64,000 bases of DNA. Origin: Candidatus Parcubacteria bacterium. Lineage in GTDB: Bacteria > Patescibacteriota > Saccharimonadia > Saccharimonadales > 2-12-FULL-41-12. The stretch is from contig JAHWKM010000003.1 in NCBI GenBank assembly GCA_019347895.1, forward strand, positions 771-64,770. Reading direction: 5' to 3'. Made by a program: the position numbers and the translations under genes. This document shows, in pieces, positions 1,202-55,321 of this stretch; the first letter of the stretch is position 1, and every line of letters starts with the position of its first letter. The notes under the pieces are model-generated. The model searched no databases. It was not told the DNA's origin and was given only the letters and a program-made list of their open reading frames with translations.

Positions 1202-1357
1202 TGGAGGGCCAGGAGGGACTCGCCCACATTCTGCGGGCCCAGAACTTTCATACTTACGGCATAGTCGCAAATCTGAAAGATTCTCTTGCGAAATGCCCCC
1301 GGCATTTCTCACCCCCGACACCCTTTTGGCGTGTTCGGGATTCGAGTCCATTCTCCA
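1202..1357 (-). ncRNA. class-1 tRNA-satellite element (Lys-CUU type): antisense T-arm copy + sense 3' third of tRNA-Lys with ~88-nt insert in the T-loop, ends in CCA
   Basis: Minus strand reads TGGAGAATGGACTCGAATCCCGAACACGCC-AAAA-GGGTGTCGGGGGT|GAGAAATGCCGGGGGCATTTCGCAAG...GGGCCCGCAGAATGTGGG|CGAGTCCCTCCTGGCCCTCCA. The flanks match tRNA-Lys at 1401..1477. The insert is conserved in 4 other copies. Confidence 0.5.
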
Positions 1358-1405
1358 ATGAAAAGGCCCCGCACAAAGCGAGAAAGCGAGGCTTTTTCAT
1401 TGGAG
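1353..1405 (-). terminator. palindromic (bidirectional) terminator hairpin joining tRNA-Lys CCA to the satellite element
   Basis: CTCCAATGAAAA / TTTTCATTGGAG 12-bp outer inverted repeat encloses the GC stem GCCTCGC...GCGGGGC. U-tracts on both strands. Confidence 0.5.
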
Positions 1406-4503: not shown

Positions 4504-4512
4504 AGTTTTTAG

Positions 4513-4690: not shown

Positions 4691-4700
4691 ATATTTTGAA

Positions 4701-5273
4701 CTATTTATCCGTCTTGTTTTCGTCGTTTTGCTTTTCGGTTTTTGGGGCGGATAATAGCTTGGTTTCTTGGGATTTGTCGTATTTTTCTAAGGTCGTCTTT
4801 ATAACTTTTAGCATTCTCTCGGCGTGTTCACGGCTCATACCAACCTGGCTAACAGATACCGGTTTGCCGTTTTGCGACTGCATAAACTGCAGCACCATGC
4901 CGTGTTTGTTAACAGTCGCGTTCATGCTGTCAGTGTATACCACGCGGTTGTCCACCGGCAGATACATAACAACTTGCTTCATCAGCATGTCCTCGATCCC
5001 ACCAGCCAGTAAACTTTCCGGAATTGCTGTATCTTTTGGCACTGTAGCCATGGCCCGCAGCTCCAAAGCCTGTTCTTCGCTCAGCAGGAAGTGGTTGATT
5101 ATCATATCGAGCAGATTGTCATTGGGCAGAATTTTCCCGGACTCGATTTGCTTCAATTCTTTTTCATCAATCTCTAAAGTCGTAGACACCTCGTCAACCG
5201 TTTGCTGCCACTTCTCTCTAAGGCTCTTAATTTTTTCGCCTAAAACCTTGTGCGGTTGTTCACTTTTACCCAT
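4701..5273 (-). CDS. helix-turn-helix (XRE-like) domain protein
   Basis: N-terminal LGEKIKSLREKWQQTVDEVSTTLEIDEKELKQIESGK HTH pattern. The rest is unassigned. Start at MGKSEQ preferred over the 5324 start. Confidence 0.4.
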   Translation of the reverse strand: MGKSEQPHKVLGEKIKSLREKWQQTVDEVSTTLEIDEKELKQIESGKILPNDNLLDMIINHFLLSEEQALELRAMATVPKDTAIPESLLAGGIEDMLMKQVVMYLPVDNRVVYTDSMNATVNKHGMVLQFMQSQNGKPVSVSQVGMSREHAERMLKVIKTTLEKYDKSQETKLLSAPKTEKQNDENKTDK

Positions 5274-5612
5274 ATTATTTATGTTATACCCCTCTTTTTT
5301 TATATGCAAGCCCCCCACATTCAACTGGTATACTTAAGCACGATGGATATCGATAAAATCACAAGCTACGCACTTGAGTGCCCAGTGTATTTTCTCAGTG
5401 ACACTAGGGGTCCCCAAGCTGAGAGGATTCAGCTTGGGGTAAAGCTCCGGAAAAAGCTGTACAAGTGGTACTGCTTTAGAGTAGCGCAGCTGAAAAATGT
5501 GCTGGGTGCTCGTTCGAGTCTGAGCCTGAGGGCTCTTCCCTCAGAGTCGAAGACCAAGAACGACTTGCAAGAACAAACTTGGTTTGGTCTGGAAAGGCGT
5601 TGTGGGTAGGTT

Positions 5613-6641
5613 GTGAAGATTGAACCTAAAGAAAATATACCGCTTAGCAGCTACTCTACCATGCGCCTCGGGGGCCCGGCCCGGTATTTGCTGGAAATAA
5701 CTTCACCCTTTGAAATCGAGCCGGCTTTGAAGTGGGCTGAGGAAAAAAATCTAGACGTAATGATGATCGGCCAAGGCAGTAATATTGTCTGGAACGACGC
5801 GGGTTTTGACGGATTGATTTTAGTTAACAAAATAATGGGGCTTGAGATGCAAGACAATGAATATCAAGCTTTTGCTGTTATTGGCGGCGGGGAGCCATGG
5901 GACAGCGTAGTAGCCCGGATTGTCGATGCTAATCTATCCGGGGTGGAACATTTGTCTTTGATTCCAGGCACAGCAGGCGCTACGCCAGTGCAAAATGTAG
6001 GGGCATACGGCCGGGAAATTGCCGATGTGCTAGTCTGCGTTCAAGCATACGACAGGCAGGCTAATAAAATGGTGATTTTATCCAAGACCGAGTGTGATTT
6101 CAGCTACCGGAAAAGCCGTTTTAACACTGTCGACAAAAACCGGTTTTTTATCACTTCGGTAACTCTGGCCTTATCCCACGATAATCCGATGCCACCCTTT
6201 TATCCGGCTTTGGAAGCCTTTCTAAAGTCTCATAACATCACCCAGCACACGGCAAAAAACATTCGCCAAGCGGTTATTGAAGTGCGCAACAGCAAACTTC
6301 CCGACCCGGCCAAAGTCGCCAACTGCGGCTCATTCTTCGCTAATCCGATCATTGATAATATGCAGCTTGATTCACTGGTAGAACAATACCCAGGGATTCC
6401 GCGCTGGGAAATCGACAGCGATAATACCAAAATTTCAGCCGCCTGGATGTTAGAACAGCTGAAGTTAAAGGGTTATCATGAGCCTAACACCGGCATGGCC
6501 ATCTGGGACAAGCACTCTTTGGTTTTGGTCAATGAAAACGCTCCCAACACCGCCTCGCTGCTGGCTTTTCGCGATGCAATTGTCAAAAAGGTCGAAGAAA
6601 AATTCGGCGTTACCCTGCAGCAGGAACCCGAACTGATTTAA
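5613..6641 (+). CDS. murB: UDP-N-acetylenolpyruvoylglucosamine reductase
   Basis: FAD-binding MurB pattern (STMRLGGPARY, MMIGQGSNIVW, LIPGTAGATPVQNVGAYG, CGSFFANP). GTG start. Confidence 0.85.
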   Translation: MKIEPKENIPLSSYSTMRLGGPARYLLEITSPFEIEPALKWAEEKNLDVMMIGQGSNIVWNDAGFDGLILVNKIMGLEMQDNEYQAFAVIGGGEPWDSVVARIVDANLSGVEHLSLIPGTAGATPVQNVGAYGREIADVLVCVQAYDRQANKMVILSKTECDFSYRKSRFNTVDKNRFFITSVTLALSHDNPMPPFYPALEAFLKSHNITQHTAKNIRQAVIEVRNSKLPDPAKVANCGSFFANPIIDNMQLDSLVEQYPGIPRWEIDSDNTKISAAWMLEQLKLKGYHEPNTGMAIWDKHSLVLVNENAPNTASLLAFRDAIVKKVEEKFGVTLQQEPELI

Positions 6642-6686
6642 TATGTGGCTTACCTTTGATCTTATTTTATAATATTATTAATATTA

Positions 6687-7175
6687 ATGACCGTTGAAGG
6701 AAGTTGCGAGGATATAGATTACGCTGCTCCTGTTGTTGACACCCTTATTCAAAGCGGTCTAGAACTAAATGATTGCGTAGTCATTGGAGGAGCAGCACTA
6801 GCTCTTAACTGTATCCGCCCCGCAGGTGATCTTGATCTAGTTTTGAACCCGTTTGTTTTTGATGAAATTGCTAACGCCGGACAAACGCCGGGAGGCTTAG
6901 CGGTTAAGGCAATGAAGTGGAGGGATAACCGGCTAATTGGTGAGACCCCTGAGGGGCCAATTACTGCCTTAGCGCTGGATCTCAATACATTTGATGGCAA
7001 AAGGAGAATTTTTACCTTTAGCGATTTTAAAAAGCGAGCCAATCAACAAGATTCATCACACGGAGAAATATACTGCGCAACTCTTGATGACATACTTGCT
7101 ATTAAGGCGCGCTCGTGGAGTCTAAAAGGGCGTCGTGACGCTAGAAGAATACGCCAATATTTAAAAGTTGGTTAA
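6687..7175 (+). CDS. putative nucleotidyltransferase-fold protein
   Basis: VVIGGAALALNCIRPAGDLDLVL resembles the G-G-x-A...D-x-D minimal NTase motif. Otherwise unassigned. Confidence 0.35.
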   Translation: MTVEGSCEDIDYAAPVVDTLIQSGLELNDCVVIGGAALALNCIRPAGDLDLVLNPFVFDEIANAGQTPGGLAVKAMKWRDNRLIGETPEGPITALALDLNTFDGKRRIFTFSDFKKRANQQDSSHGEIYCATLDDILAIKARSWSLKGRRDARRIRQYLKVG

Positions 7176-8449
7176 TTGTCGCTGGGCAGGGGGAACTGCA
7201 GGGCAAATTCTTTAACTTCATTATGAATTTGTACAAGTTTTTGATCGTCATTTCGAGCTTCAACTGCCTGCTTCATCCACTGCGCAATTTGCTCCATGTC
7301 GCCTTCTTTAAGCCCCCGGGTAGTTAGCGCTGGGGTGCCCAGACGGATTCCGCTTGGCCGAAATGGCGGGTTAGGATCATCGGGAATGGAATTTTTATTC
7401 AGGGTTAAACCTATTTTATCGAGTGTTTCTTCGGCAACCTTGCCGTTAATCCCAAAACTTGTCTGAACATCAACTAGCATAAGATGGTTGTCGGTTCCAT
7501 TAGTAATCAGTTTAAAACCGCGTTTCATCAGCTCTTCAGCCAGTTTCTTAGCATTATCAACCACCTGGCGGGCATATTTCTTAAACTCCGGCTGGGCAGC
7601 TTCGCCAAAAGCTACAGCCTTAGCTGCAATCGCATGCATATGCGGACCGCCCTGAAAACCCGGAAAAACTTCACGGTCTATCAAGGTCGGAAGGTTGTCG
7701 ACAGTTTTTTCTACCTTTTTTAGGGGGTTGCCAACTTTTCCATTACTTAAAATTAACCCTCCCCGCGGACCGCGCAGAGTTTTGTGAGTGGTAGAGGTAA
7801 TTATATGAAAGCCGAAATCAAAAGGATTAGGCGAAACTCCTCCGGCAATTAAGCCGGCAATGTGCGCCATATCGGCCACCAAAACGGCTCCCACCTCCTC
7901 GCCTATTTCCGCGAATTTTGCATAATCCAGATTGCGAGGATAACCGGAAAAACCGGCTAAAATAATTTTTGGTTTTTCTCTCTTAGCCACAGCCAGCATT
8001 TCATCATAATCAATCTCTCCGGTTTCAATGTCCTTCATGCCATAGCGCACAAAATTGTAAAGCTTGGCAGAACTTGTTACCGGGTGGCCATGCGTTAAAT
8101 GCCCGCCTTGATCCAGTTTCATTCCTAAGACAGTATCACCGGGCTCCAGCCAGGCTTGATAAACCGCAATATTTGCCGGCGCGCCGGAATGCGGCTGTAC
8201 ATTGGCGTGGTCGCAATCAAACAATGCTTTAACCCGATCAATTGCCAATTGCTCGACCTGGTCGGTAAAATCTTGCCCGCCATAATAGCGTTTTCCAGGG
8301 TAACCCTCTGAATATTTATTAGTAAAAACGCTGCCTAAAGCATTCAATACATCGCGGCTGACATAGTTCTCGCTGGGGATTAGCTCCAGGCCTTCGCGCT
8401 GACGCTTTTCCTCGCCTTTTATCAATTTAGCAATGACTTGGTCTTGCAT
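7172..8449 (-). CDS. glyA: serine hydroxymethyltransferase
   Basis: Full-length SHMT similarity including the TSTTHKTLRGPRGG PLP-lysine motif. Start at MQDQVI (8449) follows GAGGAA. The longer ORF would reach 8467. Confidence 0.9.
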   Translation of the reverse strand: MQDQVIAKLIKGEEKRQREGLELIPSENYVSRDVLNALGSVFTNKYSEGYPGKRYYGGQDFTDQVEQLAIDRVKALFDCDHANVQPHSGAPANIAVYQAWLEPGDTVLGMKLDQGGHLTHGHPVTSSAKLYNFVRYGMKDIETGEIDYDEMLAVAKREKPKIILAGFSGYPRNLDYAKFAEIGEEVGAVLVADMAHIAGLIAGGVSPNPFDFGFHIITSTTHKTLRGPRGGLILSNGKVGNPLKKVEKTVDNLPTLIDREVFPGFQGGPHMHAIAAKAVAFGEAAQPEFKKYARQVVDNAKKLAEELMKRGFKLITNGTDNHLMLVDVQTSFGINGKVAEETLDKIGLTLNKNSIPDDPNPPFRPSGIRLGTPALTTRGLKEGDMEQIAQWMKQAVEARNDDQKLVQIHNEVKEFALQFPLPSDN

Positions 8450-8647
8450 AATGCTCTTCCTCTTCATATCCCCTATTTATAGTCGCTCTTTACTTCTAAA
8501 TTATACGTGCAATAAAAATATAAACAAAACAGTACCAAATTATTGTCCGGCCGGACAGGTTTGTGGTACTGTTTGTTGTTTTTTTGTTTTGAGAATGGTT
8601 GAGGAATGGTTGTTTGGTGACATCACTTTTGATATCATATACCCCAA

Positions 8648-10168
8648 ATGGCAAATACAAACGAGAAAATCGGCTCCCTAATTTACCAGATCAGGCAAGA
8701 AAGAGGTTTGACGCAAGCTGAATTTGCCCGACGGCTGGGCACCAGCCAGAGCGCGGTAAACCGTATCGAAAAAGGCCGCCAAAATCTTAGTCTGGACACA
8801 CTTGGGCGCATTAGCGACGTACTTAACAAGCAGATTATTTCATTGGGCGGCGATACGGTTAACCTAAAAATTGAAGGCGGTCAAGAACTTTCCGGATCAA
8901 TAGAAACAAGGGTTGCCAAAAACTCTGCGGTTTGCCTGCTTTTTGCAGCTTTGTTAAACAAAGGTACCACCCGGCTAAAGAACATGCCGAGAATTGAGGA
9001 AGTTAATCGACTCATAGAGGTGTTGGTTAGCGTAGGCGTTAAAATCCGCCGGATGGCTGGAAACGATTTGGAAATACGGCCGCCTGAAAAATTCGACTTA
9101 TCCAAAATAGACAAGATCGCCGCCCGCAAAACCCGCAGCGTAATCATGATGCTGGGGCCTATGATGCATATGGAAAAACAATTCAGCATCCCCTATGCCG
9201 GCGGATGCAAGCTCGGCATTAGGACAGTTACGCCCCACCTCTACGCCCTGGAAGAATTCGGAGTACATATTGATACCAAAACCGGCCATTACCAGGTAGA
9301 TGTCAAGAAAAAAACGCCCAAGCAAGTGGTTATGTATGAGTCGGGCGATACTACGACAGAAAACGCCATTATGGCGGCGGCCTACCAAACCGATGAAGTC
9401 ATAATAAAAATGGCTAGCGCCAATTATCAAGTCCAGGATTTATGCTATTTTCTGAAAAAACTAGGCGTAAAGATCGAGGGCATCGGCACCAGCACGCTTA
9501 AAATCCGCGGCGTCCAGGAAGCCCATAAAAACATTACTTACTCTCCGATTGAAGACCCTATAGAATCAATGACATTTATAGCGGCAGCCGTCGCTACTAA
9601 TTCAAAAATTACCGTTAAAAGAGCGCCGATTGAGTTCTTGGAATTAGAGATTTTGAAACTTGAGAAGATGGGTCTTAGGGTTGATGTGGGCGAGCAATAC
9701 AAAGCCGACAATGGGCATAGCTGGCTAGCCGACATAACCGTGCACAAGCACAACGGTAAGTTGGTGGCGCTGGAAGAGAAAATTTATGCCCGGCCTTACC
9801 CGGGGTTAAACATAGACAACTTGCCCTATTTCGTGCCGATTGCCGCCGTAGCCAAAGGCCGCACCCTGATACATGACTGGGTTTACGAAGAGCGGGCGCT
9901 ATATTATACCGAGATGCGCAAACTTGGCGTGAATGTGACCTTAGCCGATCCGCACCGCGCTTATATTGACGGACCGACTAAATGGCATGTAGCGGATATC
10001 GTCTGCCCCCCGGCCTTGCGCCCGGCAGTTTTACTGCTGATAGGCATGCTGGCCGCCGACGATATTTCGATTTTACGCAATGTCTACTCTATTAACCGCG
10101 GCTATGAATATTTAGCGGAACGACTTAATTCCCTAGGCGCCAAGATAGAAATTCTCCACGACATATAA
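8648..10168 (+). CDS. murA: UDP-N-acetylglucosamine 1-carboxyvinyltransferase with N-terminal XRE-type HTH domain
   Basis: Residues ~1-65 are HTH (IRQERGLTQAEFARRLGTSQSAVNRIEKGRQN). The remainder is MurA/EPSP-fold with catalytic-Cys loop PYAGGCKLGIRTV and C-terminal INRGYEYLAERLNSLGAKIE. Confidence 0.8.
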   Translation: MANTNEKIGSLIYQIRQERGLTQAEFARRLGTSQSAVNRIEKGRQNLSLDTLGRISDVLNKQIISLGGDTVNLKIEGGQELSGSIETRVAKNSAVCLLFAALLNKGTTRLKNMPRIEEVNRLIEVLVSVGVKIRRMAGNDLEIRPPEKFDLSKIDKIAARKTRSVIMMLGPMMHMEKQFSIPYAGGCKLGIRTVTPHLYALEEFGVHIDTKTGHYQVDVKKKTPKQVVMYESGDTTTENAIMAAAYQTDEVIIKMASANYQVQDLCYFLKKLGVKIEGIGTSTLKIRGVQEAHKNITYSPIEDPIESMTFIAAAVATNSKITVKRAPIEFLELEILKLEKMGLRVDVGEQYKADNGHSWLADITVHKHNGKLVALEEKIYARPYPGLNIDNLPYFVPIAAVAKGRTLIHDWVYEERALYYTEMRKLGVNVTLADPHRAYIDGPTKWHVADIVCPPALRPAVLLLIGMLAADDISILRNVYSINRGYEYLAERLNSLGAKIEILHDI

Positions 10169-11818: not shown

Positions 11819-11974
11819 GCCCCGGTAGCTCAGCTGGATAGAGCAGGAGACTTCTAAGCTCAAGGTCGTAGGTGAGAAATGCCTTGAATGGCATTTCGCA
11901 AGGTCGGAGCGCGACGGCGCGAGACATGCCGAAAAGAATTTTTAGCAGAAAATTACTTTTGGGCGAATCCTATC
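11819..11974 (+). ncRNA. tRNA-Arg(UCU)-like sequence interrupted in the T-loop by a ~90-nt class-2 module (pseudo-tRNA or novel tRNA-scaffold RNA)
   Basis: GCCCCGGTAGCTCAGCTGGATAGAGCAGGAGACTTCTAAGCTCAAGGTCGTAGGT|GAGAAATGCCTTGAATGGCATTTCGCAAGGTCGGAGCGCGACGGCGCGAGACATGCCGAAAAGAATTTTTAGCAGAAAATTACTTTTGGG|CGAATCCTATC. T-stem GTAGG/CCTAT pairs. There is no acceptor 3' strand and the anticodon stem is weak. Confidence 0.5.
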
Positions 11975-12002
11975 TTAAACCTTACAATATAAACCGGTAC
12001 CT

Positions 12003-12079
12003 GCCCCGGTAGCTCAGTGGATTAGAGCAAGACGGTTCTAACGTCAAGGTCGGGGGTTCGAATCCCTCCCGGGGTACCA
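12003..12079 (+). tRNA. tRNA-Arg (anticodon TCT), CCA encoded
   Basis: GCCCCGGTAGCTCAGTGGATTAGAGCAAGACGGTTCTAACGTCAAGGTCGGGGGTTCGAATCCCTCCCGGGGTACCA. TACAAT -10 lies at 11983-11988. Confidence 0.9.
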
Positions 12080-12117
12080 ATATAAAAGCTGGTCCTTGTG
12101 ACCGGTTTTTATATTGG
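12077..12117 (+). terminator. palindromic terminator hairpin after tRNA-Arg(UCU)
   Basis: CCAATATAAAA-GCTGGTC-CTTGT-GACCGGT-TTTTATATTGG. Confidence 0.5.
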
Positions 12118-12264
12118 ATATCTCGGGGAATCAAACCACCGACCAAAAGGTCGGGGTGAAAAATGCCTGTGGCATTTTGCAAGGAAACCTACTCTTCAAA
12201 ACTTGTTTTGAGAGACGTAGTTTCGGGCCTGCCGAAGGTAGGTCGAATCCCTCCCGGGGTACCA
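12115..12264 (+). ncRNA. class-1 tRNA-satellite element (Arg-UCU type), ends in CCA
   Basis: TGGATATCTCGGGGAATCAAACCACCGACC-AAAA-GGTCGGGGT|GAAAAATGCCTGTGGCATTTTGCAAGGAAACC...AGTTTCGGGCCTGCCGAAGGTAGG|TCGAATCCCTCCCGGGGTACCA. Confidence 0.5.
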
Positions 12265-17046: not shown

Positions 17047-18081
17047 TTATTCTATAAATTTGTTAGTGTAGAGCGCGTCGAAATTGACAGTGTCAACCGG
17101 TTTGCCGCTAACGTCTAAAACCGCGTCATTGTCCAGCATGAACTGCGGGTAATTCCGCCAATAACTTTTTTCCTGGATTCCCCAGGTCTTGCCGGGTTTT
17201 TGATATTTGCCGCTCAAATACTCCTGGCTGGCATAAACCAAGCCCTCGTCATCAAAAGTACCTTCAGACGCTTCAGCTATTAAAATCCGGGCGGCTTCGT
17301 CTGGATTGTTGCGGGCGAATTCATAGCCGCGAACGGTTGCTTTCATAAAGCGTTTCAACAAATCCTCTTTTTTGGAAATAGTGTCAGGCGAACTGATAAT
17401 GTTTGGCGTGTAATAGTCCGGTATGCCGTGTTCTATGACGGGAAATGTATCTATGGCAAAACCGCTTCTCTCGGCTTGGATTTTTTCCCAGCCGTCAAAA
17501 ATCCAAACAAAATCTACCTTGCCGGATTCCAGCGCTTGAAGCGGCGCAGTAGAAACTGTTACATTTTTGAAATTGCCTTCGCCGCCGTCGTTTTTTATAG
17601 CGGCCTTCATGACCGGTTCCTCATAGGGCATACCGTAACCGCCGTAGATTTTGCCGTCCAGCTGGTCTAGCGAAGTTATGTTATCGCTTTTCCTGGTAGC
17701 GATGGATGAGGTGTTGGTGGTGATTATAGCCGCGATTGACGTCACCTGCGAATCACTGGCCGCGTTGGCTACCACCCCTTCCGTGAAACCAATACCCGTA
17801 TCGGCCTTGCCGGCGGATACTAAAGCATCAGAAGAAGCACTGGTGGAGTACGGCAAAAGCTTTAGCTCGACTCCTTCTTCTGCGTAATAACCTTGGTTTT
17901 TAGCCACATAAAGCCCGCTGTGGTTGGTATTCGGCGTCCAATCAAGCGCCAGCGTCACTTCCTCTAGCGGCTTTTTTGCTGTCTGTTCTTTATCATTATT
18001 AACATTCTTGGCTATTAAAAAAGCGCTTAGCCCAGCCACCAAGACCAGCGCGGCAATCGCAATTAATTTTATATTCTTCAC
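17047..18081 (-). CDS. NMT1/THI5-like substrate-binding protein (ThiY-like, HMP/thiamine precursor uptake)
   Basis: N-terminal anchor, then LALDWTPNTNHSGLYVAKNQGYYAEEG, typical of the NMT1/THI5 SBP family. First gene after the TPP riboswitch. Confidence 0.75.
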   Translation of the reverse strand: MKNIKLIAIAALVLVAGLSAFLIAKNVNNDKEQTAKKPLEEVTLALDWTPNTNHSGLYVAKNQGYYAEEGVELKLLPYSTSASSDALVSAGKADTGIGFTEGVVANAASDSQVTSIAAIITTNTSSIATRKSDNITSLDQLDGKIYGGYGMPYEEPVMKAAIKNDGGEGNFKNVTVSTAPLQALESGKVDFVWIFDGWEKIQAERSGFAIDTFPVIEHGIPDYYTPNIISSPDTISKKEDLLKRFMKATVRGYEFARNNPDEAARILIAEASEGTFDDEGLVYASQEYLSGKYQKPGKTWGIQEKSYWRNYPQFMLDNDAVLDVSGKPVDTVNFDALYTNKFIE

Positions 18082-18087
18082 GTTAAT

Positions 18088-18178
18088 TCTCCCTTCGACG
18101 GCATTACCCGTACAGGTTCATTGGGTTTATCCAGGTGTCAGCTGGAATTTCTCAGCCCGGCTATCCCGAGCTCCCCAT
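18088..18178 (-). promoter_or_regulatory. TPP (THI-box) riboswitch
   Basis: Minus strand reads GGGGAGCTCGGGATAGCCGGGCTGAGAAATTCCAGCTGACACCTGGATAAACCCAATGAACCTGTACGGGTAATGCCGTCGAAGGGAG. It contains the CTGAGA, ACCC..TGAACCTG and GGTAATGCC..GAAGGGA cores. TATAAT lies at 18197-18202 (minus). Confidence 0.8.
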
Positions 18179-18207
18179 TTATATTTGGTAACGATAATTA
18201 TAACAAC

Positions 18208-23592: not shown

Positions 23593-24171
23593 ATGTCGCT
23601 TACAGGTGAATTGATGGCTATAGATGATAAGCAGGTTGATGCAGCTATAAAGTCAGTTTTTCCATCGGGTTACAGTACTAATGGAGCTGATGAACGATTG
23701 TCCGACGAGCCATATAAGGTCTTAGCTTCATTAGGTCAGGAGGTGATAGATAGAGGCCTTGAGGAAAATCAGGTGGTATCTGAAGAAGAGGGAATGGTGC
23801 GATTGGGTGGGCGGCTCGGTCTAGCCATACTTATAGAATGCGGTGAAAATTCAGCATCCACCCGTTCTGATACATCGCTCAGAGACGAGTTAAGGGATAT
23901 CGGAGATGGGCAAGTTGGCACCGCTATAGATGCAGTATTCAAAAAGATCAGTGACACTGATGAATGGAGCGAACTTGAAAATACATTGGATAGAAATTAC
24001 GATGCATTAGTTAAACTAGGCCGTAAAATTATAGAAGTGACATTGGAGAGAGGTTCATTTTTTAACCTAGATATCATAAATAGCATGGAATGGGGTTGGT
24101 GGCTCAATCTGGCCATACTTAAAGAAATCGGCGAACGGCAACTGTTCAAATCCGCCGATTTACTAGAATAA
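23593..24171 (+). CDS. hypothetical protein with two ~90-aa internal repeats
   Basis: Repeat 1 is ...IDDKQVDAAIKSVF...LGLAILIECGE. Repeat 2 is ...IGDGQVGTAIDAVF...LNLAILKEIGE. TTGACA promoter upstream. Confidence 0.5.
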   Translation: MSLTGELMAIDDKQVDAAIKSVFPSGYSTNGADERLSDEPYKVLASLGQEVIDRGLEENQVVSEEEGMVRLGGRLGLAILIECGENSASTRSDTSLRDELRDIGDGQVGTAIDAVFKKISDTDEWSELENTLDRNYDALVKLGRKIIEVTLERGSFFNLDIINSMEWGWWLNLAILKEIGERQLFKSADLLE

Positions 24172-24349
24172 TGTGTACATGAAACTTGAGGACTTGAACT
24201 TCCCTATCAAGTTTATTTTTTGCAAGCATGAGCGAAAAAGTGCCTAGCTTTTTACCTTCAGAAGGCATATATAATTTTATTTGCATATATGGCGATAAGG
24301 TGTAAAACTGTATATAAGAATATGTTTGGAGAGATAAAAATCTAAGGTT

Positions 24350-25333
24350 ATGCGAGAACGAAAGGTTAGTTTCTATAGCGAAGGCCACAAACTCACCGGT
24401 ACGGTATACCTGCCGGATGATTACCAGCCTGGCGAGAAACGGCCGGTTATCATCCCGAGTTCCGGCTATCAAGGCTTTAATGAGTTTTATCCCAAGTTGT
24501 TTAGCCGTTACCTTACGGCAGCCGGTTATGTGTGCCTGGGGTTTGATTACCGCGGTTTTGCCGAGAGCGGCGGCCGCAAAGGCCGGGTGATACTCGATGA
24601 GCAAATCCAGGATATCAAAAACGCACTGACGTTTGCTCAGATCCAGGAAGAGACGGATCCCGAACGCATCGGCCTGTTGGGCTGGGGTATGGGCGCCTTT
24701 AACGTCGTCCAGGTCGCCGCGGCCGACAAACGCGTCAAGGCTGTCGCGGCGCTCAACGGTTTTTACAACGGCGAGCGTTGGCTCAAATCAATCCATTCCT
24801 ATCTGCAATGGCACGACATCTTAGAAATGATCGAAGCCGATCGAGTGCGGCGTGTCACAACCGGTAAATCACTACGTACCGACCCTTTTATTCACTATCC
24901 GCTCGACCCGGCCACCAACCGCTACGTCCAAAAAGAGCTGGCTCCTTTGTCTCCGTTTGGCAAAAAAATCGACTTGCAGTTTACCGATTCAATAATGGCC
25001 ATGGACGCCGAGCAAGTGGCGGCGTCTATAGCTCCGAGGCCGCTCTTTATCGGGCACGGCCGGCAGAATTTGCTGCATCCTTGGGAAGAAGCCGCCGCGC
25101 TGTACGAGTCAGCCGCGCAGCCAAAAGAGCTGTATTGGATTGACGGCAAGCACAATGATTTTATGTACTCCGACCACCCGGTCTTCAATGATCTTATCCT
25201 GCGGATGATCGAGTTTTTCCGGATTTTGCAGCAACAGCCGGATGTCCGCAACAAAACGCGCCCCACTCCGTTGCCAGACGAACTATACGCCGGCAACACC
25301 CGGCTGGAGGAGGCTCGCTCAGCCAATCAATGA
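24350..25333 (+). CDS. alpha/beta hydrolase fold protein (nucleophile Ser replaced by Gly)
   Basis: Fold-typical order (VIIPSSGYQG, nucleophile elbow, C-terminal GKHNDF His). The elbow reads GWGMG, not G-x-S-x-G. Confidence 0.65.
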   Translation: MRERKVSFYSEGHKLTGTVYLPDDYQPGEKRPVIIPSSGYQGFNEFYPKLFSRYLTAAGYVCLGFDYRGFAESGGRKGRVILDEQIQDIKNALTFAQIQEETDPERIGLLGWGMGAFNVVQVAAADKRVKAVAALNGFYNGERWLKSIHSYLQWHDILEMIEADRVRRVTTGKSLRTDPFIHYPLDPATNRYVQKELAPLSPFGKKIDLQFTDSIMAMDAEQVAASIAPRPLFIGHGRQNLLHPWEEAAALYESAAQPKELYWIDGKHNDFMYSDHPVFNDLILRMIEFFRILQQQPDVRNKTRPTPLPDELYAGNTRLEEARSANQ

Positions 25334-25372
25334 CCTTAGTATTATTTGCCAAATATCCGACATAAACTATAA

Positions 25373-26053
25373 CTACTTATAATTTAAAATGTGCTCTGAA
25401 ACGATATTAAGGGTAATGTCATTCTTCTCATCTACCTTAAGTTTTGACGGAGAAGCAACGTAATATGACCCATTATATCCAGAGTACGAACAGAGTTTTT
25501 TAAACTTCGCCACGCAAGGAACGCACAATTTGAAGTCAGCTTGCTTGATTAACGGGCTATAGAACTTCTTTGCTCTGCCACAAGAATTGCATTTATCATC
25601 AGCTTTGTTTGCGCGAGCGTTTTCTACAAAGTTATTGGCAGATTCGATCTGCCTTCTAAACTCTACAGCTATTTTGTCGCGTTCAGTTTCTGGCTCACCT
25701 AGAAGCTCATTTTTTAGCTGCTCAAACTCCTCAGAGTCAATCTTGCCCGTAACATACCGTTCAGCAAGCTTTACGCCTGCGCCACGGCCAAAAATCATCA
25801 AGTCGACGGTTATTTCAGCGTCGCGCTTAGCCAGCTTGTCATACGTTGTCTTATCAATCTTTCCTGCTGCGTATTGCTCACTCAGCTTCTGAATCGGTTT
25901 AGAGCGCCGCTCTTCGGCTAAACTTACTTTACGATTAAACTTCTCCTGCAACTCCTGAACTTGTCTCTGCTGTCTTTTCTGCTCGCGTTCGGATGCGCGT
26001 ATTGAGCGATTTACGCTTCCTCTGACCGATCTTAGCGTTCCTTTGTAGCCCAT
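25373..26053 (-). CDS. hypothetical protein with two SHOCT-like motifs and C-terminal Cys4 zinc ribbon
   Basis: YAAGKIDKTTYDKLAKR and YVTGKIDSEEFEQLKNELL. CNSCGRA...CVPC. Confidence 0.45.
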   Translation of the reverse strand: MGYKGTLRSVRGSVNRSIRASEREQKRQQRQVQELQEKFNRKVSLAEERRSKPIQKLSEQYAAGKIDKTTYDKLAKRDAEITVDLMIFGRGAGVKLAERYVTGKIDSEEFEQLKNELLGEPETERDKIAVEFRRQIESANNFVENARANKADDKCNSCGRAKKFYSPLIKQADFKLCVPCVAKFKKLCSYSGYNGSYYVASPSKLKVDEKNDITLNIVSEHILNYK

Positions 26054-26093
26054 TACTTCCTCCTAACGTTCTTAGACATACTATACTTAGTAT

Positions 26094-26852
26094 ATGTCAA
26101 GAATCGAGAGAACTGAAAAGTCAAAACCTATCTCAAGATATGACCGCAAAGATTCTATACGGCTAGCTTGCTACTTATGTGGTTCATCTGACAACTTAGA
26201 TCGTGAGCACGTTTTTCCCAGGGTATTATTCAGGCCGAATGATCTGGAAGATCCTTTGATCCTTAGCGCCTGTAGAAGTTGCAATTCCGCAAAAGCAAGT
26301 AACGAAGAGTATGTATCAGAGCATTTTATGTGGACTACTGAGACTCCGGAGGCGGAAGTCTCCGGAAAGAAGTTTATCGAGGGCGTAAAAAAACGAGTTC
26401 CGCTCGTTATTGGCAAGGAAAAGATCCTTCGTAACGCACGTGCTGCGCGCTTAGCTAAGCTGACTGAAAATATGACAGATGTAACTATAAGGAGTCCGTC
26501 GGGAATAATTTTAGGTGAAGGTGGTCAAATAAAGATTGATTCGAAAAAGTTTAGTGATTTTTATTCAGATATAGCCAAGGGACTATTCGTTGCTGCATCA
26601 GGCTCACATAAAGACTGGTCAGAATACACAATCCACCAGCAATTCGATAGCTTCACTTACGGAAAACACTGGAATAAAGATACTTACCTTCTTCCTTTTC
26701 AGCATTCAGATTTTCGCGAAGAGTGGGACAGACATTTAATCTTCTCGGGATTTGTCCGTACTTTTCCTAGTGGAGTCTCAGCTAGTATGTGGTCGGTAGC
26801 GATTTATAATGAACAGCTCGGCATCGTTGTGTTCAGAACAAAAACTGACTAA
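26094..26852 (+). CDS. HNH endonuclease domain protein with unknown C-terminal domain
   Basis: CYLCGSSDNLDREHVFPRVLF...CRSCNSAKASNEEY (HNH_5-like pattern). Confidence 0.55.
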   Translation: MSRIERTEKSKPISRYDRKDSIRLACYLCGSSDNLDREHVFPRVLFRPNDLEDPLILSACRSCNSAKASNEEYVSEHFMWTTETPEAEVSGKKFIEGVKKRVPLVIGKEKILRNARAARLAKLTENMTDVTIRSPSGIILGEGGQIKIDSKKFSDFYSDIAKGLFVAASGSHKDWSEYTIHQQFDSFTYGKHWNKDTYLLPFQHSDFREEWDRHLIFSGFVRTFPSGVSASMWSVAIYNEQLGIVVFRTKTD

Positions 26853-26980
26853 GCGACACGGGCACAGTTATACTGCGAAAAAACATTAATTCTTGTACCA
26901 ACAGGTTTATAGAACCCCGAGCAAATACTAGACAAATTAAGGTTCTTATGCTACTATTTAAATAGTAATCAAAAACAAAT

Positions 26981-27799
26981 ATGACCAGTGAAACTGATTT
27001 ACCAACACAAAGCACCCCTAGTCTAGTAGAGCAATTAGGCACGAGCCAAGTTATGTTAGTAAATACAAAACATAATGCGCCTTGGCCGTTTGCGGAGTAT
27101 AACCCACGTTTAAATGAGCAAAGTAACATTATGGCCAGAGCAATGGGTAGTGAAGCTATAAAAGCGTTTAAATTACACGAGGAACCTACTGACCCAAACG
27201 TAGTGAACACTTTTAACGCGCTTGCACAAGATAGACCTGCCTACGTACCTGTTGAAGCTGAAGAATTAACCCAAAAGCTACAAGACGCAAGTGAAGCATT
27301 TGGCGCAGATAGTGCGGGTATGATTGTAAAAACTAATGCACTACGTAGACCTATGTTTGGTACGGAGTTCAGCTATTTTAATACTTTTGCAGCCTTACAA
27401 ATTAAAAGTAAACCATATAGATTATTAGCTAAAGAAGGCACTGCTGACATAGAGACGATTGAAAGAGCATTTAGTTTGCTTGCACCGCCCTCGTCAGTAG
27501 CAACGGCTAACGGTAACACTTATGCAGCGGTAGAATTTGTAGAAAAAGCAGAACACCCTACTAGCCTTACAGAGGATGAGTTAGCTGATTGGACAAACAG
27601 ATTTAAGCAAGCTAACGTTGATATTGGTTTAGATATTGGTGATGACGATGTAATCCTGGATAATTTTGTGCGACATAATGGCAAGCTATACTGGTGTGAT
27701 GGTAACCTAATGGGTGCCAAACAACTTGCGCTTGAAAAAGCAGCTGATTACTTTGCCCAATGGCAAGCAAAGTTAGAAAAATTTGTTGAAACTATATAA
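26981..27799 (+). CDS. hypothetical protein
   Basis: 272-aa ORF with no motif I can assign. C-terminal VILDNFVRHNGKLYWCDGN is vaguely kinase-like. Confidence 0.45.
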   Translation: MTSETDLPTQSTPSLVEQLGTSQVMLVNTKHNAPWPFAEYNPRLNEQSNIMARAMGSEAIKAFKLHEEPTDPNVVNTFNALAQDRPAYVPVEAEELTQKLQDASEAFGADSAGMIVKTNALRRPMFGTEFSYFNTFAALQIKSKPYRLLAKEGTADIETIERAFSLLAPPSSVATANGNTYAAVEFVEKAEHPTSLTEDELADWTNRFKQANVDIGLDIGDDDVILDNFVRHNGKLYWCDGNLMGAKQLALEKAADYFAQWQAKLEKFVETI

Positions 27800-27829
27800 A
27801 AAAAGCCTGGAAAAATCTAGGCCTTTTTC
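27800..27829. terminator. bidirectional terminator
   Basis: AAAAAA-GCCTGG-AAAAAT-CTAGGC-CTTTTT. It terminates the plus-strand CDS and the minus-strand Pro satellite element. Confidence 0.5.
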
Positions 27830-27830
27830 A

Positions 27831-27976
27831 TGGTCGGGGTGAGAGGACTTGCCCACGTTCCGCGGGCCCGAAACTTCATCTTTGAAAACAAGTTTTCAAG
27901 AGAAGATTTCCTTGCGACCCGCCCTGGCGGGTCTCACCTCCGACCTTTTTAGCGTCGGAGATTCAAATCTCGACCA
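27831..27976 (-). ncRNA. class-1 tRNA-satellite element (Pro-UGG type), ends in CCA
   Basis: Minus strand reads TGGTCGAGATTTGAATCTCCGACGCT-AAAA-AGGTCGGAGGT|GAGACCCGCCAGGGCGGGTCGCAAGGAAATC...AGTTTCGGGCCCGCGGAACGTGGG|CAAGTCCTCTCACCCCGACCA. Confidence 0.5.
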
Positions 27977-28009
27977 AAATAAAAACTGCCGAAAAGGCAG
28001 TTCATATTT
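27977..28009 (-). terminator. palindromic terminator hairpin after tRNA-Pro
   Basis: Minus strand reads (GACC)AAAATATGAA-CTGCC-TTTTC-GGCAG-TTTTTATTTT(GGTC). Confidence 0.5.
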
Positions 28010-28086
28010 TGGTCGGGGTGAGAGGACTTGAACCTCCGACCTTGCGGTCCCAAACCGCACGCGCTAGCCAACTGCGCCACACCCCG
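28010..28086 (-). tRNA. tRNA-Pro (anticodon TGG), CCA encoded
   Basis: Reverse complement CGGGGTGTGGCGCAGTTGGCTAGCGCGTGCGGTTTGGGACCGCAAGGTCGGAGGTTCAAGTCCTCTCACCCCGACCA. TACAAT -10 lies ~16 nt upstream. Confidence 0.9.
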
Positions 28087-28218
28087 ATAAACAAGTTTTA
28101 TTGTAAAGGTTCTAGCCAGGACTTGGTCACCTCCGGCCGCGACATCAAAACTTAAAATACCTAACAGGGGTAATTCTACCATGAATTATTTGAGGCGAGA
28201 AGACTTGCGCTAATCGAT

Positions 28219-29016
28219 TTATTTTATTATACGTTGAATATGCTCGATTGAGCGGGCCAAACCGGTTGTTTCATCGATATCTAACAGCACGGCGTTGAAC
28301 TGGAGAGGACCGGATTGCTCGATTTCATTGCGGCTGGACTTGCCGAATTTCCAGCGCTCGGCAATAACCGGTGTTTTAACCCCAAGAGAGGAGTGCAGCG
28401 TACCGCACATGCCTACATCAGTAATGTGCGCCGTGCCGCCCGGCAATACCATGGCGTCGGCCGTCGGCACATGCCAATGGTCGCCGATAACGGCCGAAGC
28501 CCGGCTGTCAAGGTAGTAGCCGAAAACTCGCTTTTCACTGGAAAAGTCTCCGTGAAAATTTATAATGCTCGCCGCTAGCTGTTGGTTGCTTAACACGTTA
28601 AGTATTTTATCGATTGTTTTTAGAGGATTATCAATTTCAGCCGGATTGCTGCTTACGGTTTGACCTAGTATGCTAGCAAACAAAATATTGCCATGCTTTG
28701 TCTCGACAACCTTCCAACCGCTGCCGATTTCTGTTTTCAGGTTCGCCGGGCGGATGGCCGGCACGTTCGGCTCGGCAAACAACTTCTCAGACTCTTTGCC
28801 CAGCAGGCTATGGTTGCCACCGGTAAAAAAATCTACCCCCGCTTCCTGCAGCTCCCGAATCTCCTTAGGCCCAGCACCCTTGCCCGCATCATCAGCGTTT
28901 TCTACCTGAGCTATTACAAAATCAGGCCCGGGCCGATTTTTGGCATCACCTAAATACTGTATGACGGCCCGTCGGCCCGGCTCCGCCATAACATCTCCGA
29001 TGTAGAGAATTTTCAT
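28219..29016 (-). CDS. ymdB: YmdB-like metallophosphoesterase (2',3'-cyclic-nucleotide phosphodiesterase family)
   Basis: MKILYIGDVMAEPGRRAV N-terminus plus GNH and GDHWH metal motifs. Confidence 0.8.
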   Translation of the reverse strand: MKILYIGDVMAEPGRRAVIQYLGDAKNRPGPDFVIAQVENADDAGKGAGPKEIRELQEAGVDFFTGGNHSLLGKESEKLFAEPNVPAIRPANLKTEIGSGWKVVETKHGNILFASILGQTVSSNPAEIDNPLKTIDKILNVLSNQQLAASIINFHGDFSSEKRVFGYYLDSRASAVIGDHWHVPTADAMVLPGGTAHITDVGMCGTLHSSLGVKTPVIAERWKFGKSSRNEIEQSGPLQFNAVLLDIDETTGLARSIEHIQRIIK

Positions 29017-53590: not shown

Positions 53591-53881
53591 TGGAGGGTCC
53601 GGTGGGACTCGGCCACATCCTGCGGTCACTTTTCGCGACCCCGCTAGTTACATACTTTGAACGAGTTCAAAATCTGAAACGTAGCCTTACAAAAAGTCCC
53701 CAACTTTTCTCAACTGGAACTTTCATACTTACAGCATGCTGAAAATCTGAAAGGTTCCCTTGAGAACGTCCACTGGACGTTCTCACCCCCGACACCCTTT
53801 TGGCGTGCCGTGTTTTCAAATCTCACCAGTGAGATTCTCCAAACAAAAAACCCAGCTCTAAGCTGAGTTCTTTGTTTGGAG
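53591..53881 (-). ncRNA. class-1 tRNA-satellite element, long variant (Lys type) with duplicated middle module, ends in CCA
   Basis: Minus strand reads ...CGGCACGCC-AAAA-GGGTGTCGGGGGT|GAGAACGTCCAGTGGACGTTCTCAAGGGAACC-TTTCAGATTTTCAGCATGCTGTAAGTATGAAAG...GTTTCAGATTTTGAACTCGTTCAAAGTATG...GACCGCAGGATGTGGC|CGAGTCCCACCGGACCCTCCA. Confidence 0.45.
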
Positions 53882-54114
53882 TGTCCGGTGGGACTCGCCT
53901 CGCAAGAAAAAGAAAAAATACTTTTTCTAATGCGACCCCAAAGGCCTCTGGCCTTTCTGGGGCAAGGGGCCGGGTGAGAACTGCCCGGTGGCAGTTCGCA
54001 GAGCCGGAAGCGCGACGGCGCGCTGAGGCGGGCTCGCGAAATCCGCCAGCAGGCGGATATTTGTGAGTTGCCGAGTAGGCAATCCCGTTCGAGTCCCAAC
54101 GGAAACATCCTCCA
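53877..54114 (+). ncRNA. class-2-like tRNA-satellite element on the plus strand, ends in T-arm-like hairpin and CCA
   Basis: TGGAGTGTCCGGTGGGACTCG (antisense Lys 3' end)...CCCCAAAGGCC-TCT-GGCCTTTCTGGGG...GGGT|GAGAACTGCCCGGTGGCAGTTCGCAGAGCCGGAAGCGCGACGGCGCGCT...CCGTTCGAGTCCCAACGGAAACATCCTCCA. Palindromic hairpins flank it at 53837-53881 and 54110-54151. Confidence 0.35.
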
Positions 54115-54210
54115 AACGAAAAACTCCCATTCGGGAGTTCATAGTTTGGAGAAGCAAGGTGCAAACTATTGCAACTGAACTACAAAAGAACCACAATCTT
54201 TTTATTGCAA

Positions 54211-54809: not shown

Positions 54810-54976
54810 TGGAGGGTCCGGTGGGACTCGGCCTACCTCCGGCAGGCCCGGAAGTTCACTATTGCAAGCACAGCTTGCATCGGAACGTTCCCTTACGACA
54901 TGCCACTGGCATGTCTCACCCCGACACCCTTTTGGCGTGTCGCAGATTCGAGAACCACAAAACATTAATCCTCCAT
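54810..54976 (-). ncRNA. class-1 tRNA-satellite element (Lys-UUU type), ends in CCA
   Basis: Minus strand reads ATGGAGGATTAATGTTTTGTGGTTCTCGAATCTGCGACACGCC-AAAA-GGGTGTCGGGGT|GAGACATGCCAGTGGCATGTCGTAAGGGAACG...TGCAAGC-TGT-GCTTGCA...CGGGCCTGCCGGAGGTAGGC|CGAGTCCCACCGGACCCTCCA. Confidence 0.5.
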
Positions 54977-55011
54977 AGCTCCGCAAAAAGCGGAGCGACG
55001 GAGAATGGAGG
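54970..55011 (-). terminator. palindromic terminator hairpin after tRNA-Lys(UUU)
   Basis: Minus strand reads CCTCCAT-TCTCCGTC-GCTCCGC-TTTTT-GCGGAGC-T-ATGGAGG. Confidence 0.5.
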
Positions 55012-55082: not shown

Positions 55083-55089
55083 TTGTTTA

Positions 55090-55321
55090 ATATTGTAAAT
55101 GATCACGGGTAAATCCACGACCCAAAGATAATTTTCTGGTGAAAATTTCTTTCGGCATGCCTCGCTCCGTCGCGCTCCGGCCTTGCGAACTGCCATCAGG
55201 CAGTTCTCACCCTGCTTAAAAGGCAGGTGCTCCCATGTCATCCGACATGGCCGTATCGTATGATACGGTAACCGGCTGACCTGTCCGCCGAAGCCTTGGC
55301 GTAGGCGGGAGCTACGGACCC
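55090..55321 (-). ncRNA. hairpin-decorated tRNA-Lys(UUU)-like RNA: three perfect hairpins inserted in the D-arm plus a class-2 module after the anticodon arm
   Basis: Minus strand reads GGGTCCGTAGCT[CCCGCCTACGCCAAGGCTTCGGCGGACAGGT]CAGCCGGTTA[CCGTATCATACGATACGGCCATGTCGGATGACATGG]GAGCACCTGCCTTTTAAGCAGGGT|GAGAACTGCCTGATGGCAGTTCGCAAGGCCGGAGCGCGACGGAGCGAGGCATGCCGAAAGAAATTTTCACCAGAAAATTATCTTTGGG|TCGTGGATTTACCCGTGATC. The non-inserted 47 nt are identical to the 5' 47 nt of the adjacent tRNA-Lys. Confidence 0.5.

Follow-up and report, generated by a model that had tools for sequence, protein, structure and literature searches.

Why should an intact bacterial tRNA gene be followed by an inverted and an interrupted direct piece of itself, and what is the insert that interrupts the latter? 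This question was raised by the tRNA-Pro(UGG) locus in a 64-kb stretch of contig JAHWKM010000003.1. The whole stretch is called the window below, coordinates without a locus number are window positions, and L-numbers denote loci from other contigs. The window was labelled Candidatus Parcubacteria bacterium at NCBI, and its close relatives as well as the family of the insert were all Saccharimonadales. The insert, an element of ~88 nt named E here, may be seen as the core of a composite non-coding "tRNA-tail module" that appears to be common in Saccharibacteria. The reading we favour, to which a probability of about 0.45 was given, is that E is a site-specific, structure-dependent insertion element, seen where the intact tRNA gene has been regenerated with inverted and direct partial copies left behind.

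The locus was read on the minus strand from 28086 to 27796, and its order was tRNA-Pro(UGG), palindromic terminator, degenerate antisense tRNA 3' half, hairpin, E, copy of the tRNA 3' end, and second terminator. All of these features lay on the minus strand except the second terminator, to which no strand was assigned. The tRNA gene (28010..28086) was intact with an encoded CCA and was detected by ARAGORN and by the Rfam tRNA model (65.3 bits). The palindromic terminator T1 (27977..28009) was composed of a GC hairpin between an A-rich and a T-rich arm. Its inverted repeat of 20 nt was 90% complementary (27971-27990 with 27996-28015) and included the pairing of GACCAAAATA with TATTTTGGTC; terminator-like hairpins were predicted at 27983-28003 for both strands, and the palindrome arms reached into both neighbours, namely CGACCA of the tRNA and TGGTCG of the antisense copy. 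The antisense copy of the tRNA-Pro 3' half, TGGTCGAGATTTGAATCTCCGAC (27954..27976), was identified by alignment to the reverse-complemented tRNA 3' half, and ran in the order TGG, acceptor complement with deletions, T-loop complement TTTGAAT, and T-stem 5' complement CTCCGAC. It was followed by the loop GCTAAAAAG and the sense variable-loop and T-stem 5' strand GGTCGGAGG (27937..27953), with CTCCGAC (27954-27960) paired to GTCGGAG (27938-27944) in a hairpin designated H2. The last GG of the GGTCGGAGG segment overlapped the first two positions of the E model. E itself, a class-A copy of 88 nt (27851..27938; covariance model R1, 99.8 bits, E-value 3e-21), interrupted the partial T-arm copy between G53/T54 and C56, and was followed by an exact direct copy of the tRNA-Pro 3' end from A57 to A76 including CCA, AAGTCCTCTCACCCCGACCA (27831..27850). 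This copy was identical to 28010-28029, the last 20 nt of the tRNA, and two matches were found in the window against 0 expected; C56 was shared, the last base of E being at 27851, so the tRNA-end copy measured 20-21 nt. Terminator T2 (27796..27830, terminator-like hairpin at 27805-27822) closed the module and also ended the convergent ORF 26981-27799. The sequence-only reading had described this layout, and the tRNA-Pro gene, the GACCAAAATA / TATTTTGGTC hairpin, the antisense segment, the 7-bp pairing, the insert, the 3'-end copy and the second terminator were all found in place. No sigma-70-like promoter was found in 27700-28250, so none was present within the module.

The structure of E was determined from an alignment of 89 distinct class-A copies with a mean column identity of 70%, and the consensus was calculated by RNAalifold. 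The consensus was 5'-GG-P1-AG-P2-GG-P3-3' with three hairpins and 35 pairs, comprising GGTGAGA, P1 of 12 bp with an A·G mismatch, AG, the two-tier hairpin P2, GG, and P3 of 7 bp with a GAA triloop. Double-sided changes were detected in 26 of the 35 pairs. The proportion of paired cells was 96.0%, compared with 74.4% after shuffling and 27-43% when the partner was slid by 1-3 columns; cells with double changes numbered 629 (172 after shuffling), and the covariation score was 0.573, against 0.176 for shuffled and at most 0.09 for slid alignments. The unpaired joints GGTGAGA, TCGCAAG and the GAA triloop were nearly invariant, and the A·G mismatch within P1 was fixed. The copy at tRNA-Pro formed 35 of the 35 model pairs. 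Between the two strands, 96.0% of cells were paired in the forward and 92.0% in the reverse direction, with 151 G·U cells compared to 28 A·C cells. This G·U excess and the weaker reverse pairing showed the tRNA-sense strand to be the one under selection, whether in the form of RNA or of single-stranded DNA. Compensatory covariation, a common fold and restriction to one strand, by which structured RNAs are generically recognised, were all found in E, and its covariation signal was among the clearest obtainable from sequence alone. E may act as RNA.

The 147-nt module RNA had a predicted fold of -64.1 kcal/mol (z = -4.65). In the minimum-free-energy fold of 27831-27977 (-), GGTGAGA of E was paired with TCTCACC of the tRNA-Pro fragment, a complementarity which is specific to tRNA-Pro and probably coincidental. 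When the window was searched with Rfam 15 (4227 models), only tRNAs and one TPP riboswitch passed the gathering score, and at an E-value of at most 10 nothing was matched to E in 27750-28120, the best non-tRNA match (E-value 0.14) being outside E. A short ORF in E, a GTG frame of 19 codons, was considered and rejected because the compensatory changes would scramble the frame.

For the distribution of E, its 5'-domain pattern was scanned over one genome per GTDB species, and the family loci were the matches listed. The pattern was detected in at least 118 GTDB contigs, the great majority of which were labelled Saccharibacteria, Saccharimonadales or Patescibacteria; a handful of matches labelled as other phyla lacked the remainder of E. 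Contigs with E binned as Nevskiaceae (L006), Calothrix (L019) and Woesebacteria (L075) were also observed, and these labels were probably labelling or binning errors. No match was found among 2.9 M viral contigs of IMG/VR, so a phage origin was unsupported. Among the 129 matches listed, 60 were of D type, starting 62-90 nt after the CCA of an intact tRNA on the same strand, and 25 were of U type, starting 125-190 nt before such a tRNA. A tRNA neighbour on the opposite strand was seen in only five of the 129, and most of the remaining matches were at locus edges. Where a tRNA was located within 400 nt, it was on the same strand as E in 85 of 90 listed matches. All isotypes were represented among the adjoining intact tRNAs, and many extra copies in the family loci were revealed by the covariance model, the maximum being at least four per 8 kb. 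The literature search, in which literal sequence strings were included, returned no description of E, and the family is apparently large and undescribed.

Two unusual settings of E were observed. At tRNA-Phe (L063, L117, L020, L062) E was in reverse orientation, immediately 5' of a complete T-arm and acceptor copy, and this was the sole recurrent antisense setting among the loci listed. Flanks unlike tRNA were found at L104 (5290-5378), L055 (298-387), L048, L094, L077 and L050, and no host RNA family was identified by Rfam at these six loci. The common flanks of L104 and L055 (...GAGCCTCCGGCG, E, GAGGCACCGC...) suggest that E may there be inserted in another conserved RNA or motif.

The position of E relative to the interrupted tRNA pieces was regular. 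In downstream modules the 5' flank of E ended in G52-G53(-T54), that is GG(T), and of the 38 modules, 30 had their 3' junction at C56 and 7 at T55, with T55 usually missing. U-type copies, compared with the adjacent intact gene, interrupted the D-loop, anticodon loop, variable loop or T-loop; E followed GG in the D-loop at L101 and L115, and it stood in the variable loop at L018 and at tRNA-Lys(TTT) of the window, and in the anticodon loop at L012 and L100. At L100 the insertion was exact when compared with the intact neighbour (ctggGGT/E/GGTGAGG). Nesting was detected in at least seven copies, and all of them were entered after model position 73, in the GG linker before P3. Hairpins P1 and P3 occupied the ends of E, the 5' flank was always GG(T), 1-2 nt were usually lost, and the hairpin sequences covaried. 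No target-site duplication was found at the junctions, and the ends GGTGAG.../...GTGACC formed at best an imperfect inverted repeat of 4/6 that varied with P3 covariation, so the ends did not resemble those of a miniature inverted-repeat transposable element (MITE). The idea that the break came from restriction at TT^CGAA was rejected because the same junction occurred in TTCAAGT loops. A T-loop-complement motif was present 6-12 nt from TATAAT in upstream modules and 9 nt from TAAAAA at tRNA-Pro, and it was rejected as a -35 box because this spacing is too short.

An intact, uninterrupted tRNA always adjoined the tRNA piece interrupted by E. When ~120 copies were excised in silico with offsets of 0-4 and lengths of 70-229, no tRNA joining the two flanks was recovered by ARAGORN, and the matches obtained solely joined the upstream copy to the adjacent intact gene. 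Since excision never rebuilt a tRNA, E is no working intron. No integrase, transposase, TnpB or reverse transcriptase was detected in Pfam scans of the 29 window ORFs, and neither a Y1 (HUH) transposase nor TnpB was found in the 64 kb.

The module around E was built from duplicated tRNA parts. In every D module examined, the path from tRNA to E contained a palindromic terminator, TGG with a degenerate antisense 3' half, and a short hairpin using the copy of the sense variable loop and T-stem 5' strand. In 62 modules the complements of the T-loop, T-stem 5' strand and variable loop were best kept (~0.7-0.9 match per position), compared with ~0.4-0.65 for the acceptor complement, which was worst kept. 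Among the listed loci, a copy of the tRNA's own 3' end was found downstream of 61 of the 163 tRNAs with enough 3' sequence, mostly 160-185 nt away. It was preceded by class-A E in 36 of the 61 cases and by class B or other insert families in the others, while an uninterrupted T-arm before the copy was seen in ~1 of 61. Inserts other than E before 3'-end copies were also observed in L054, L064, L082 and L099. The 3'-end copy was exact to CCA in 15 of 38 modules, the terminators after gene and after copy were identical or near-identical in ~20% of modules, and tandem arrays of units were found at L105, L098 and 53.6 kb of the window. These results suggested local duplication and ongoing homogenisation between direct repeats. 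In the window modules the two terminators were unrelated, so the tRNA-Pro 3'-end copy is more likely to have been maintained by conversion than newly made. A simple tandem tRNA duplication was rejected because it cannot yield the antisense copy, and a perfect "inverted triplication at birth" was weakened by L075, where the terminators were identical and the antisense acceptor part was unrelated.

The history of the tRNA-Pro module was examined in relatives found through YmdB homologues, in which the order RNase Y, Ser-hydrolase, YmdB, tRNA-Pro was conserved. Class-A modules were present in L119 (YmdB identity 84%) and L121 (67%), and the H2 loop of the window recurred in L119 as GCTAAAGAG. Two loci, L124 (65%) and L123 (64%), were empty, with only the tRNA and terminator. 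L125 (60%; 3426-3574) showed the same architecture of terminator, antisense copy and fragment with a different GC-rich insert of ~65 nt, and its fragment began deeper in the T-arm (GTCCTTTATCCCCGACCA). Among the window, L119 and L121, E differed in P1 and inner P2 by compensatory changes only, and the first terminator and antisense copy were much more diverged than E. These comparisons indicated that the module is old enough to have diverged, has been gained, lost or replaced between lineages, and contains an E that is structurally constrained in place. Where the sequence-only reading had left it open whether the module was spread between tRNA genes or retained at several, both parts held, with retention at L119 and L121 tRNA-Pro, absence at L123 and L124, and another insert at L125. 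The similarity of E was 0.741 within the same tRNA identity and 0.722 between different ones, a difference reached by 14 of 1000 label permutations, and it was 0.775 within loci (9 pairs) compared with 0.719 between loci. This weak clustering by tRNA or locus argued against both strictly vertical tRNA-specific lineages and recent bursts.

The ends of tRNA-Pro were also used by larger elements. In L119 a 5.1-kb island (4403-9470) with a large serine recombinase was located directly after ...CCGACCA of the tRNA gene, and the module was displaced by 5 kb. An island of this type was joined to the duplicated fragment in L121, where its left end (6230-6450) came after ...CCGACCA; the left ends of the L119 and L121 islands were homologous in sequence. 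In L123 a large serine recombinase (3331-4998) was found after tRNA-Pro and its terminator. As the islands were joined to the gene in L119 and to the fragment in L121, the duplicated tail can act as a second attachment site. T2 of the window was homologous to the L119 terminator (9476-9510) directly after CGACCA, which stood directly after the L119 tRNA before the island arrived; this showed that the repeats have recombined. When the L119 recombinase was searched by tblastn against all loci, only L119 and a weak match in L005 were obtained, which indicated that recombinases are not generally linked to E.

Taken together, the insertion reading would run as follows. E is proposed to enter exposed loops after GG(T). 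Its usual target would be the T-loop, between G53/T54 and T55/C56, with the D and anticodon loops as rarer sites, and it would also enter the GG linker of another E. An insertion in an essential single-copy tRNA gene would persist only with an intact gene regenerated alongside, and the survivors would therefore be intact tRNAs beside an E-bearing partial copy. The D type would then consist of the intact tRNA, terminator, inverted 3' half, hairpin, T-stem 5' strand, E, and the stretch from T-loop to CCA; the U type would consist of a promoter, the tRNA 5' part, E, a few tRNA bases, a new promoter and the intact tRNA. The inverted-then-direct order around the palindromic terminator would be the product of fold-back or template-switch repair, so that the duplications would have originated in the repair of breaks, and gene conversion would afterwards hold the 3'-end copy identical to the gene, and islands could use this copy as a second attachment site. 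On this reading E would be mobile rather than spread only by recombination. Several observations weigh against it. The antisense acceptor part was strongly diverged even where the terminators were identical, as in L075, and modules with other insert families had the same architecture, which therefore may not be caused by E. The similarity of E within loci was only slightly higher than between them, recent intragenomic bursts were not evident, and E remained structurally intact in evidently old modules, which agrees with a host function no less than with a selfish element. No recombinase, transposase or reverse transcriptase was present in the Pfam scans of the window or consistently near E in the loci, an autonomous ORF-bearing E was not seen among the loci, and the junctions were imprecise by 1-2 nt, unlike those of clean cut-and-paste or intron homing.

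The most serious competitor, although doubtful in our judgement, is that E is a structured RNA beneficial to the host. The antisense copy would pair with sense pieces on both sides and close a rod ending in ...CCA, and the RNA would be made by read-through of the tRNA or from the pseudo-tRNA promoter of U modules and be processed or stabilised by tRNA-maturation enzymes. The retention of all 35 pairs at tRNA-Pro, though the terminators are unrelated and the antisense copy has decayed, fits this explanation, as do the purely compensatory changes between orthologues, the strand-specific structure with conserved G·U pairs, and the stable predicted fold of the 147-nt module (-64.1 kcal/mol, z = -4.65). 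The best-kept antisense parts, those complementary to the T-loop, T-stem 5' strand and variable loop, partly form H2 beside E, and the length of the module is tightly constrained, as shown by 3'-end copies mostly 160-185 nt downstream. It is opposed by the good terminator before the module and the lack of a promoter-like site in it, by the missing modules of L123 and L124 and the unrelated insert of L125, and by the downstream module at only 4 of 7 window tRNAs; moreover, the nested, opposite-strand, D-loop and anticodon-loop copies resemble insertions, not genes. An integrative origin is unlikely. The module would then be a miniature integrative element or its stable remnant, integrated in Campbell style through the 21-nt homology of the tRNA 3' end by a recombinase acting in trans, with gene 3' end and copy as attL and attR and with E as cargo or as part of the attachment region. 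A unit of constant size is indeed flanked by direct repeats of the tRNA 3' end, Campbell integration through the gene's 5' part would formally yield the U modules, and in L119, L121 and L123 this tRNA-Pro end is used by islands with large serine recombinases. The head-to-tail stacks (53.6-53.9 kb of the window, L105) are like the serial integrations of tycheposons (bioRxiv 10.1101/2020.12.28.424599). However, there were 0 matches in 2.9 M viral contigs and no integrase in or beside the modules, one recombinase would be needed for every isotype with a matching 3' end in the element each time, and the RNA-like covariation of E is unlike protein-binding arm sites. E also lies inside the T-loop, where the crossover would fall, and the identical flanking terminators in ~20% of modules point to local duplication rather than to an imported terminator.

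That E is a non-autonomous IS200/IS605-type (PATE-like) element, mobilised in single-stranded form by a Y1 transposase whose gene lies elsewhere, is very unlikely in our view. Here E with the next ~20 nt of tRNA would be the right-end guide (omega) RNA, whose 3' guide matches the empty site at GGT(T). What follows E is identical to what follows GGT(T) in the intact gene, GG(T) always precedes the insertion, also within other E copies, subterminal hairpins stand at both ends (P1, P3), terminal inverted repeats and target duplication are lacking, and the fold is strand-specific with G·T tolerated. These likenesses are offset by stems that covary freely without a fixed sequence recognised by a protein, by junctions that lose 1-2 nt, by TnpA and TnpB not found in the window, and by the lack of an Rfam match to E at an E-value of at most 10. 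Known omega-RNA scaffolds are longer than E, a guide directed to an essential tRNA would be self-toxic unless the effector is nuclease-dead, and the inverted and direct tRNA duplications are left unexplained. That E is a tRNA intron, self-spliced or protein-spliced (bulge-helix-bulge type), with the partial copies as decayed intron alleles, is hardly credible. E does interrupt tRNA-derived loops nearly always in sense orientation, nested E recalls twintrons, and group I introns abound in the tRNA genes of Patescibacteria (PMC13011429). But the failure of excision to yield a complete tRNA at any of ~120 copies contradicts it, every interrupted piece has an intact, uninterrupted tRNA gene beside it, group I introns are far larger than 88 nt, and E is antisense beside tRNA-Phe. 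There was also no group I or II Rfam signal at E: RF00028 gave no match at the gathering score in the window, nor at an E-value of at most 10 in 27750-28120, although it does detect a group I intron unrelated to E at L077 (7202-7409 (-), 74.5 bits).

Compared with known systems, E shared single traits with several. Rickettsia palindromic elements, Correia, ERIC and MITEs are likewise high-copy, non-coding units of ~100 nt with conserved secondary structure, scattered in a small genome, whereas E lacks terminal inverted repeats and target duplication, shows extreme specificity for tRNA loops, is tied to tRNA duplications, and displays deep covariation instead of near-identical recent copies. 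Archaeal split, permuted and multi-intron tRNA genes are broken at loops (T- and D-loop) with complementary segments flanking the break, and E modules break the tRNA at loops with complementary flanks in the same way; the E pieces differ in that they never make a needed tRNA, the intact gene is present, no bulge-helix-bulge was identified, and the host is a bacterium. With IS200/IS605 miniatures, REP/RAYT and the TnpB guide RNA, E has in common its small, non-coding, hairpin-rich and strand-specific nature, the lack of inverted terminal repeats and target duplication, insertion after a short motif, and a 3' flank that would match the empty site, while the differences are that no HUH transposase or TnpB was found near E, its covariation is of the free RNA style, its target is the T-loop with partial gene duplications, and its junctions are slightly imprecise. 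Tycheposons (bioRxiv 10.1101/2020.12.28.424599) and the "destroy and replace" type of tRNA-dependent lysogeny (PMC10865867) resemble E modules in the intact tRNA followed by its own 3'-end copy, and tRNA-targeting integrative elements also show stacked partial tRNAs, a disrupted gene replaced by an adjacent good copy, and variable islands nearby. Unlike these, the E module measures ~180 nt, contains no integrase or other gene, has no viral-contig match, always combines an inverted 3' half with a covarying element placed precisely in the T-loop, and duplicates the 5' part and promoter in U modules. Group I introns of Patescibacteria tRNAs exceed 200 nt, occupy the anticodon loop of complete sole-copy genes and are self-splicing (PMC13011429); they resemble E in being structured inserts in tRNA loops of the same phylum that are missed by standard annotation, and differ from it since E has 88 nt, no Rfam group I signal, a location mostly in the T-loop, and only partial copies beside the intact gene. 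The relatives of E in kind are thus att scars, PATE/REP elements and palindromic repeats, and no match in Rfam or the literature was found for the combination of T-loop specificity, inverted plus direct duplication, U and D types, covariation and phylum-wide abundance. It is rather unlikely, but conceivable, that E represents a new structure-dependent mobile class homing to the T-loop via template-switch regeneration, or that E and the 3'-end copy together form a guide-type RNA, with E as scaffold and the 20-nt match directed to tRNA genes, for an effector still to be identified.

The tRNA-Pro module was not the only one in the window. The E 5'-domain pattern gave 4 matches compared with 0.00 expected, and the covariance-model scores were 99.8 bits at tRNA-Pro, 97.2 at tRNA-Arg(TCT), 92.2 at tRNA-Lys(TTT) and 72.5 at tRNA-Lys(CTT). 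The earlier claims that the flanks are specific to Pro while the insert is common to other tRNA loci, Arg and Lys among them, were borne out by these matches and scores, with the precision that the Arg copy belongs to tRNA-Arg(TCT) (12003-12079), and tRNA-Arg(TCG) (4513-4589) is without a module. In total, nine full or partial copies of E were found, and modules stood beside 4 of the 7 tRNA genes. Besides that of tRNA-Pro, D modules were located after tRNA-Lys(CTT) 1401-1477 (1202..1400 (-); E 1222-1313, 3'-end copy 1202-1221), after tRNA-Arg(TCT) (12080..12264 (+); E 12155-12243, 3'-end copy 12244-12264), and after tRNA-Lys(TTT) 55006-55082 (54811..55005 (-); E 54831-54920, 3'-end copy 54811-54830).

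Upstream modules were found at tRNA-Arg(TCT) and tRNA-Lys(TTT), and both consisted of a tRNA 5' copy with a class-B element, then TACAAT, then the intact gene. Class B comprised the first hairpin or 5' domain of E with a different 3' part and an extra hairpin in P3. At tRNA-Arg(TCT) (11819..12002 (+); class B from 11871, 34.3 bits over 11871-11931) the order was diverged tRNA 5' copy, class B, T-loop remnant CGAATCC, TACAAT and intact tRNA, and the pseudo 5' copy was clearly diverged from the functional gene. At tRNA-Lys(TTT) (55083..55321 (-)) the class-B element started at 55211 and scored 31 bits over 55153-55211. The pseudo 5' copy of this gene (55225-55310 (-)) carried two small GC-rich hairpin inserts in the D-loop, ccgcctacgccaaggcttcggcggacag and ccgtatcatacgatacgg + ccatgtcggatgacatgg, which suggests activity of further hairpin insert families in tRNA copies that are not essential. 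A region of stacked and nested modules (53591..54190 (-)) was revealed by the covariance-model search with filters off. It contained two more tRNA-Lys(TTT) 3'-end copies, at 53891-53910 (1 mismatch) and 53591-53610 (exact), and within the stack at 53.6-54.05 kb E 53624-53714 was nested in E 53715-53787. A class-B copy at 53973-54050 was on the plus strand, opposite to the stacked Lys modules. Between the first and second Lys(TTT) 3'-end copies, a RibD_C/DHFR-like ORF (54211-54795) was observed, resembling a one-gene islet.

The sequence-only reading had also proposed to test whether the accessory block beside the tRNA-Pro module is absent from related genomes and bounded by the tRNA-Pro fragment as an att-like site. 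The block (23593-27799) contained five ORFs, of which two were assigned by Pfam as an alpha/beta hydrolase and a SHOCT-domain protein and the other three were unknowns. By tblastn none of the five was matched in the loci of the relatives, where RNase Y, Ser-hydrolase, YmdB and tRNA-Pro remained syntenic, so the region after the module is variable and the first part of the proposal was supported. As to the second part, no recombinase was found in the block by the Pfam scan, the block begins after T2, and on its far side there was only a T-arm-like match of 15/16 (GAGGACTTGAACTTCC, 24188-24203, + strand), which may be an old attachment remnant. The ~160-nt non-coding unit bounded by the direct repeats of the tRNA 3' end (27831-27850 and 28010-28029) contained no integrase. 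An att role of the tRNA-Pro fragment in this genome is at most plausible. Elsewhere in the window, the TPP riboswitch (18071-18187 (-), 56.2 bits) was directly 5' of an NMT1/THI5-like ORF (17047-18081).

The genomes of Saccharibacteria are very small and streamlined, yet nine copies or partial copies of E were present in 64 kb. The pseudo-tRNA fragments and repeats of the modules will confuse tRNA annotation, island prediction and assembly in genomes of candidate phyla. If E is a host RNA, it would be an abundant unknown player in the tRNA biology of an uncultivated phylum. If E is mobile, it would be a parasite that exploits the T-loop, the most conserved sequence in biology, without killing its host, and it would account for tRNA neighbourhoods as integration hotspots in the phylum. 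Should the mobile or the guide reading be true, a previously unknown, phylum-wide genetic system would operate around the tRNA genes of these ultra-small bacteria.

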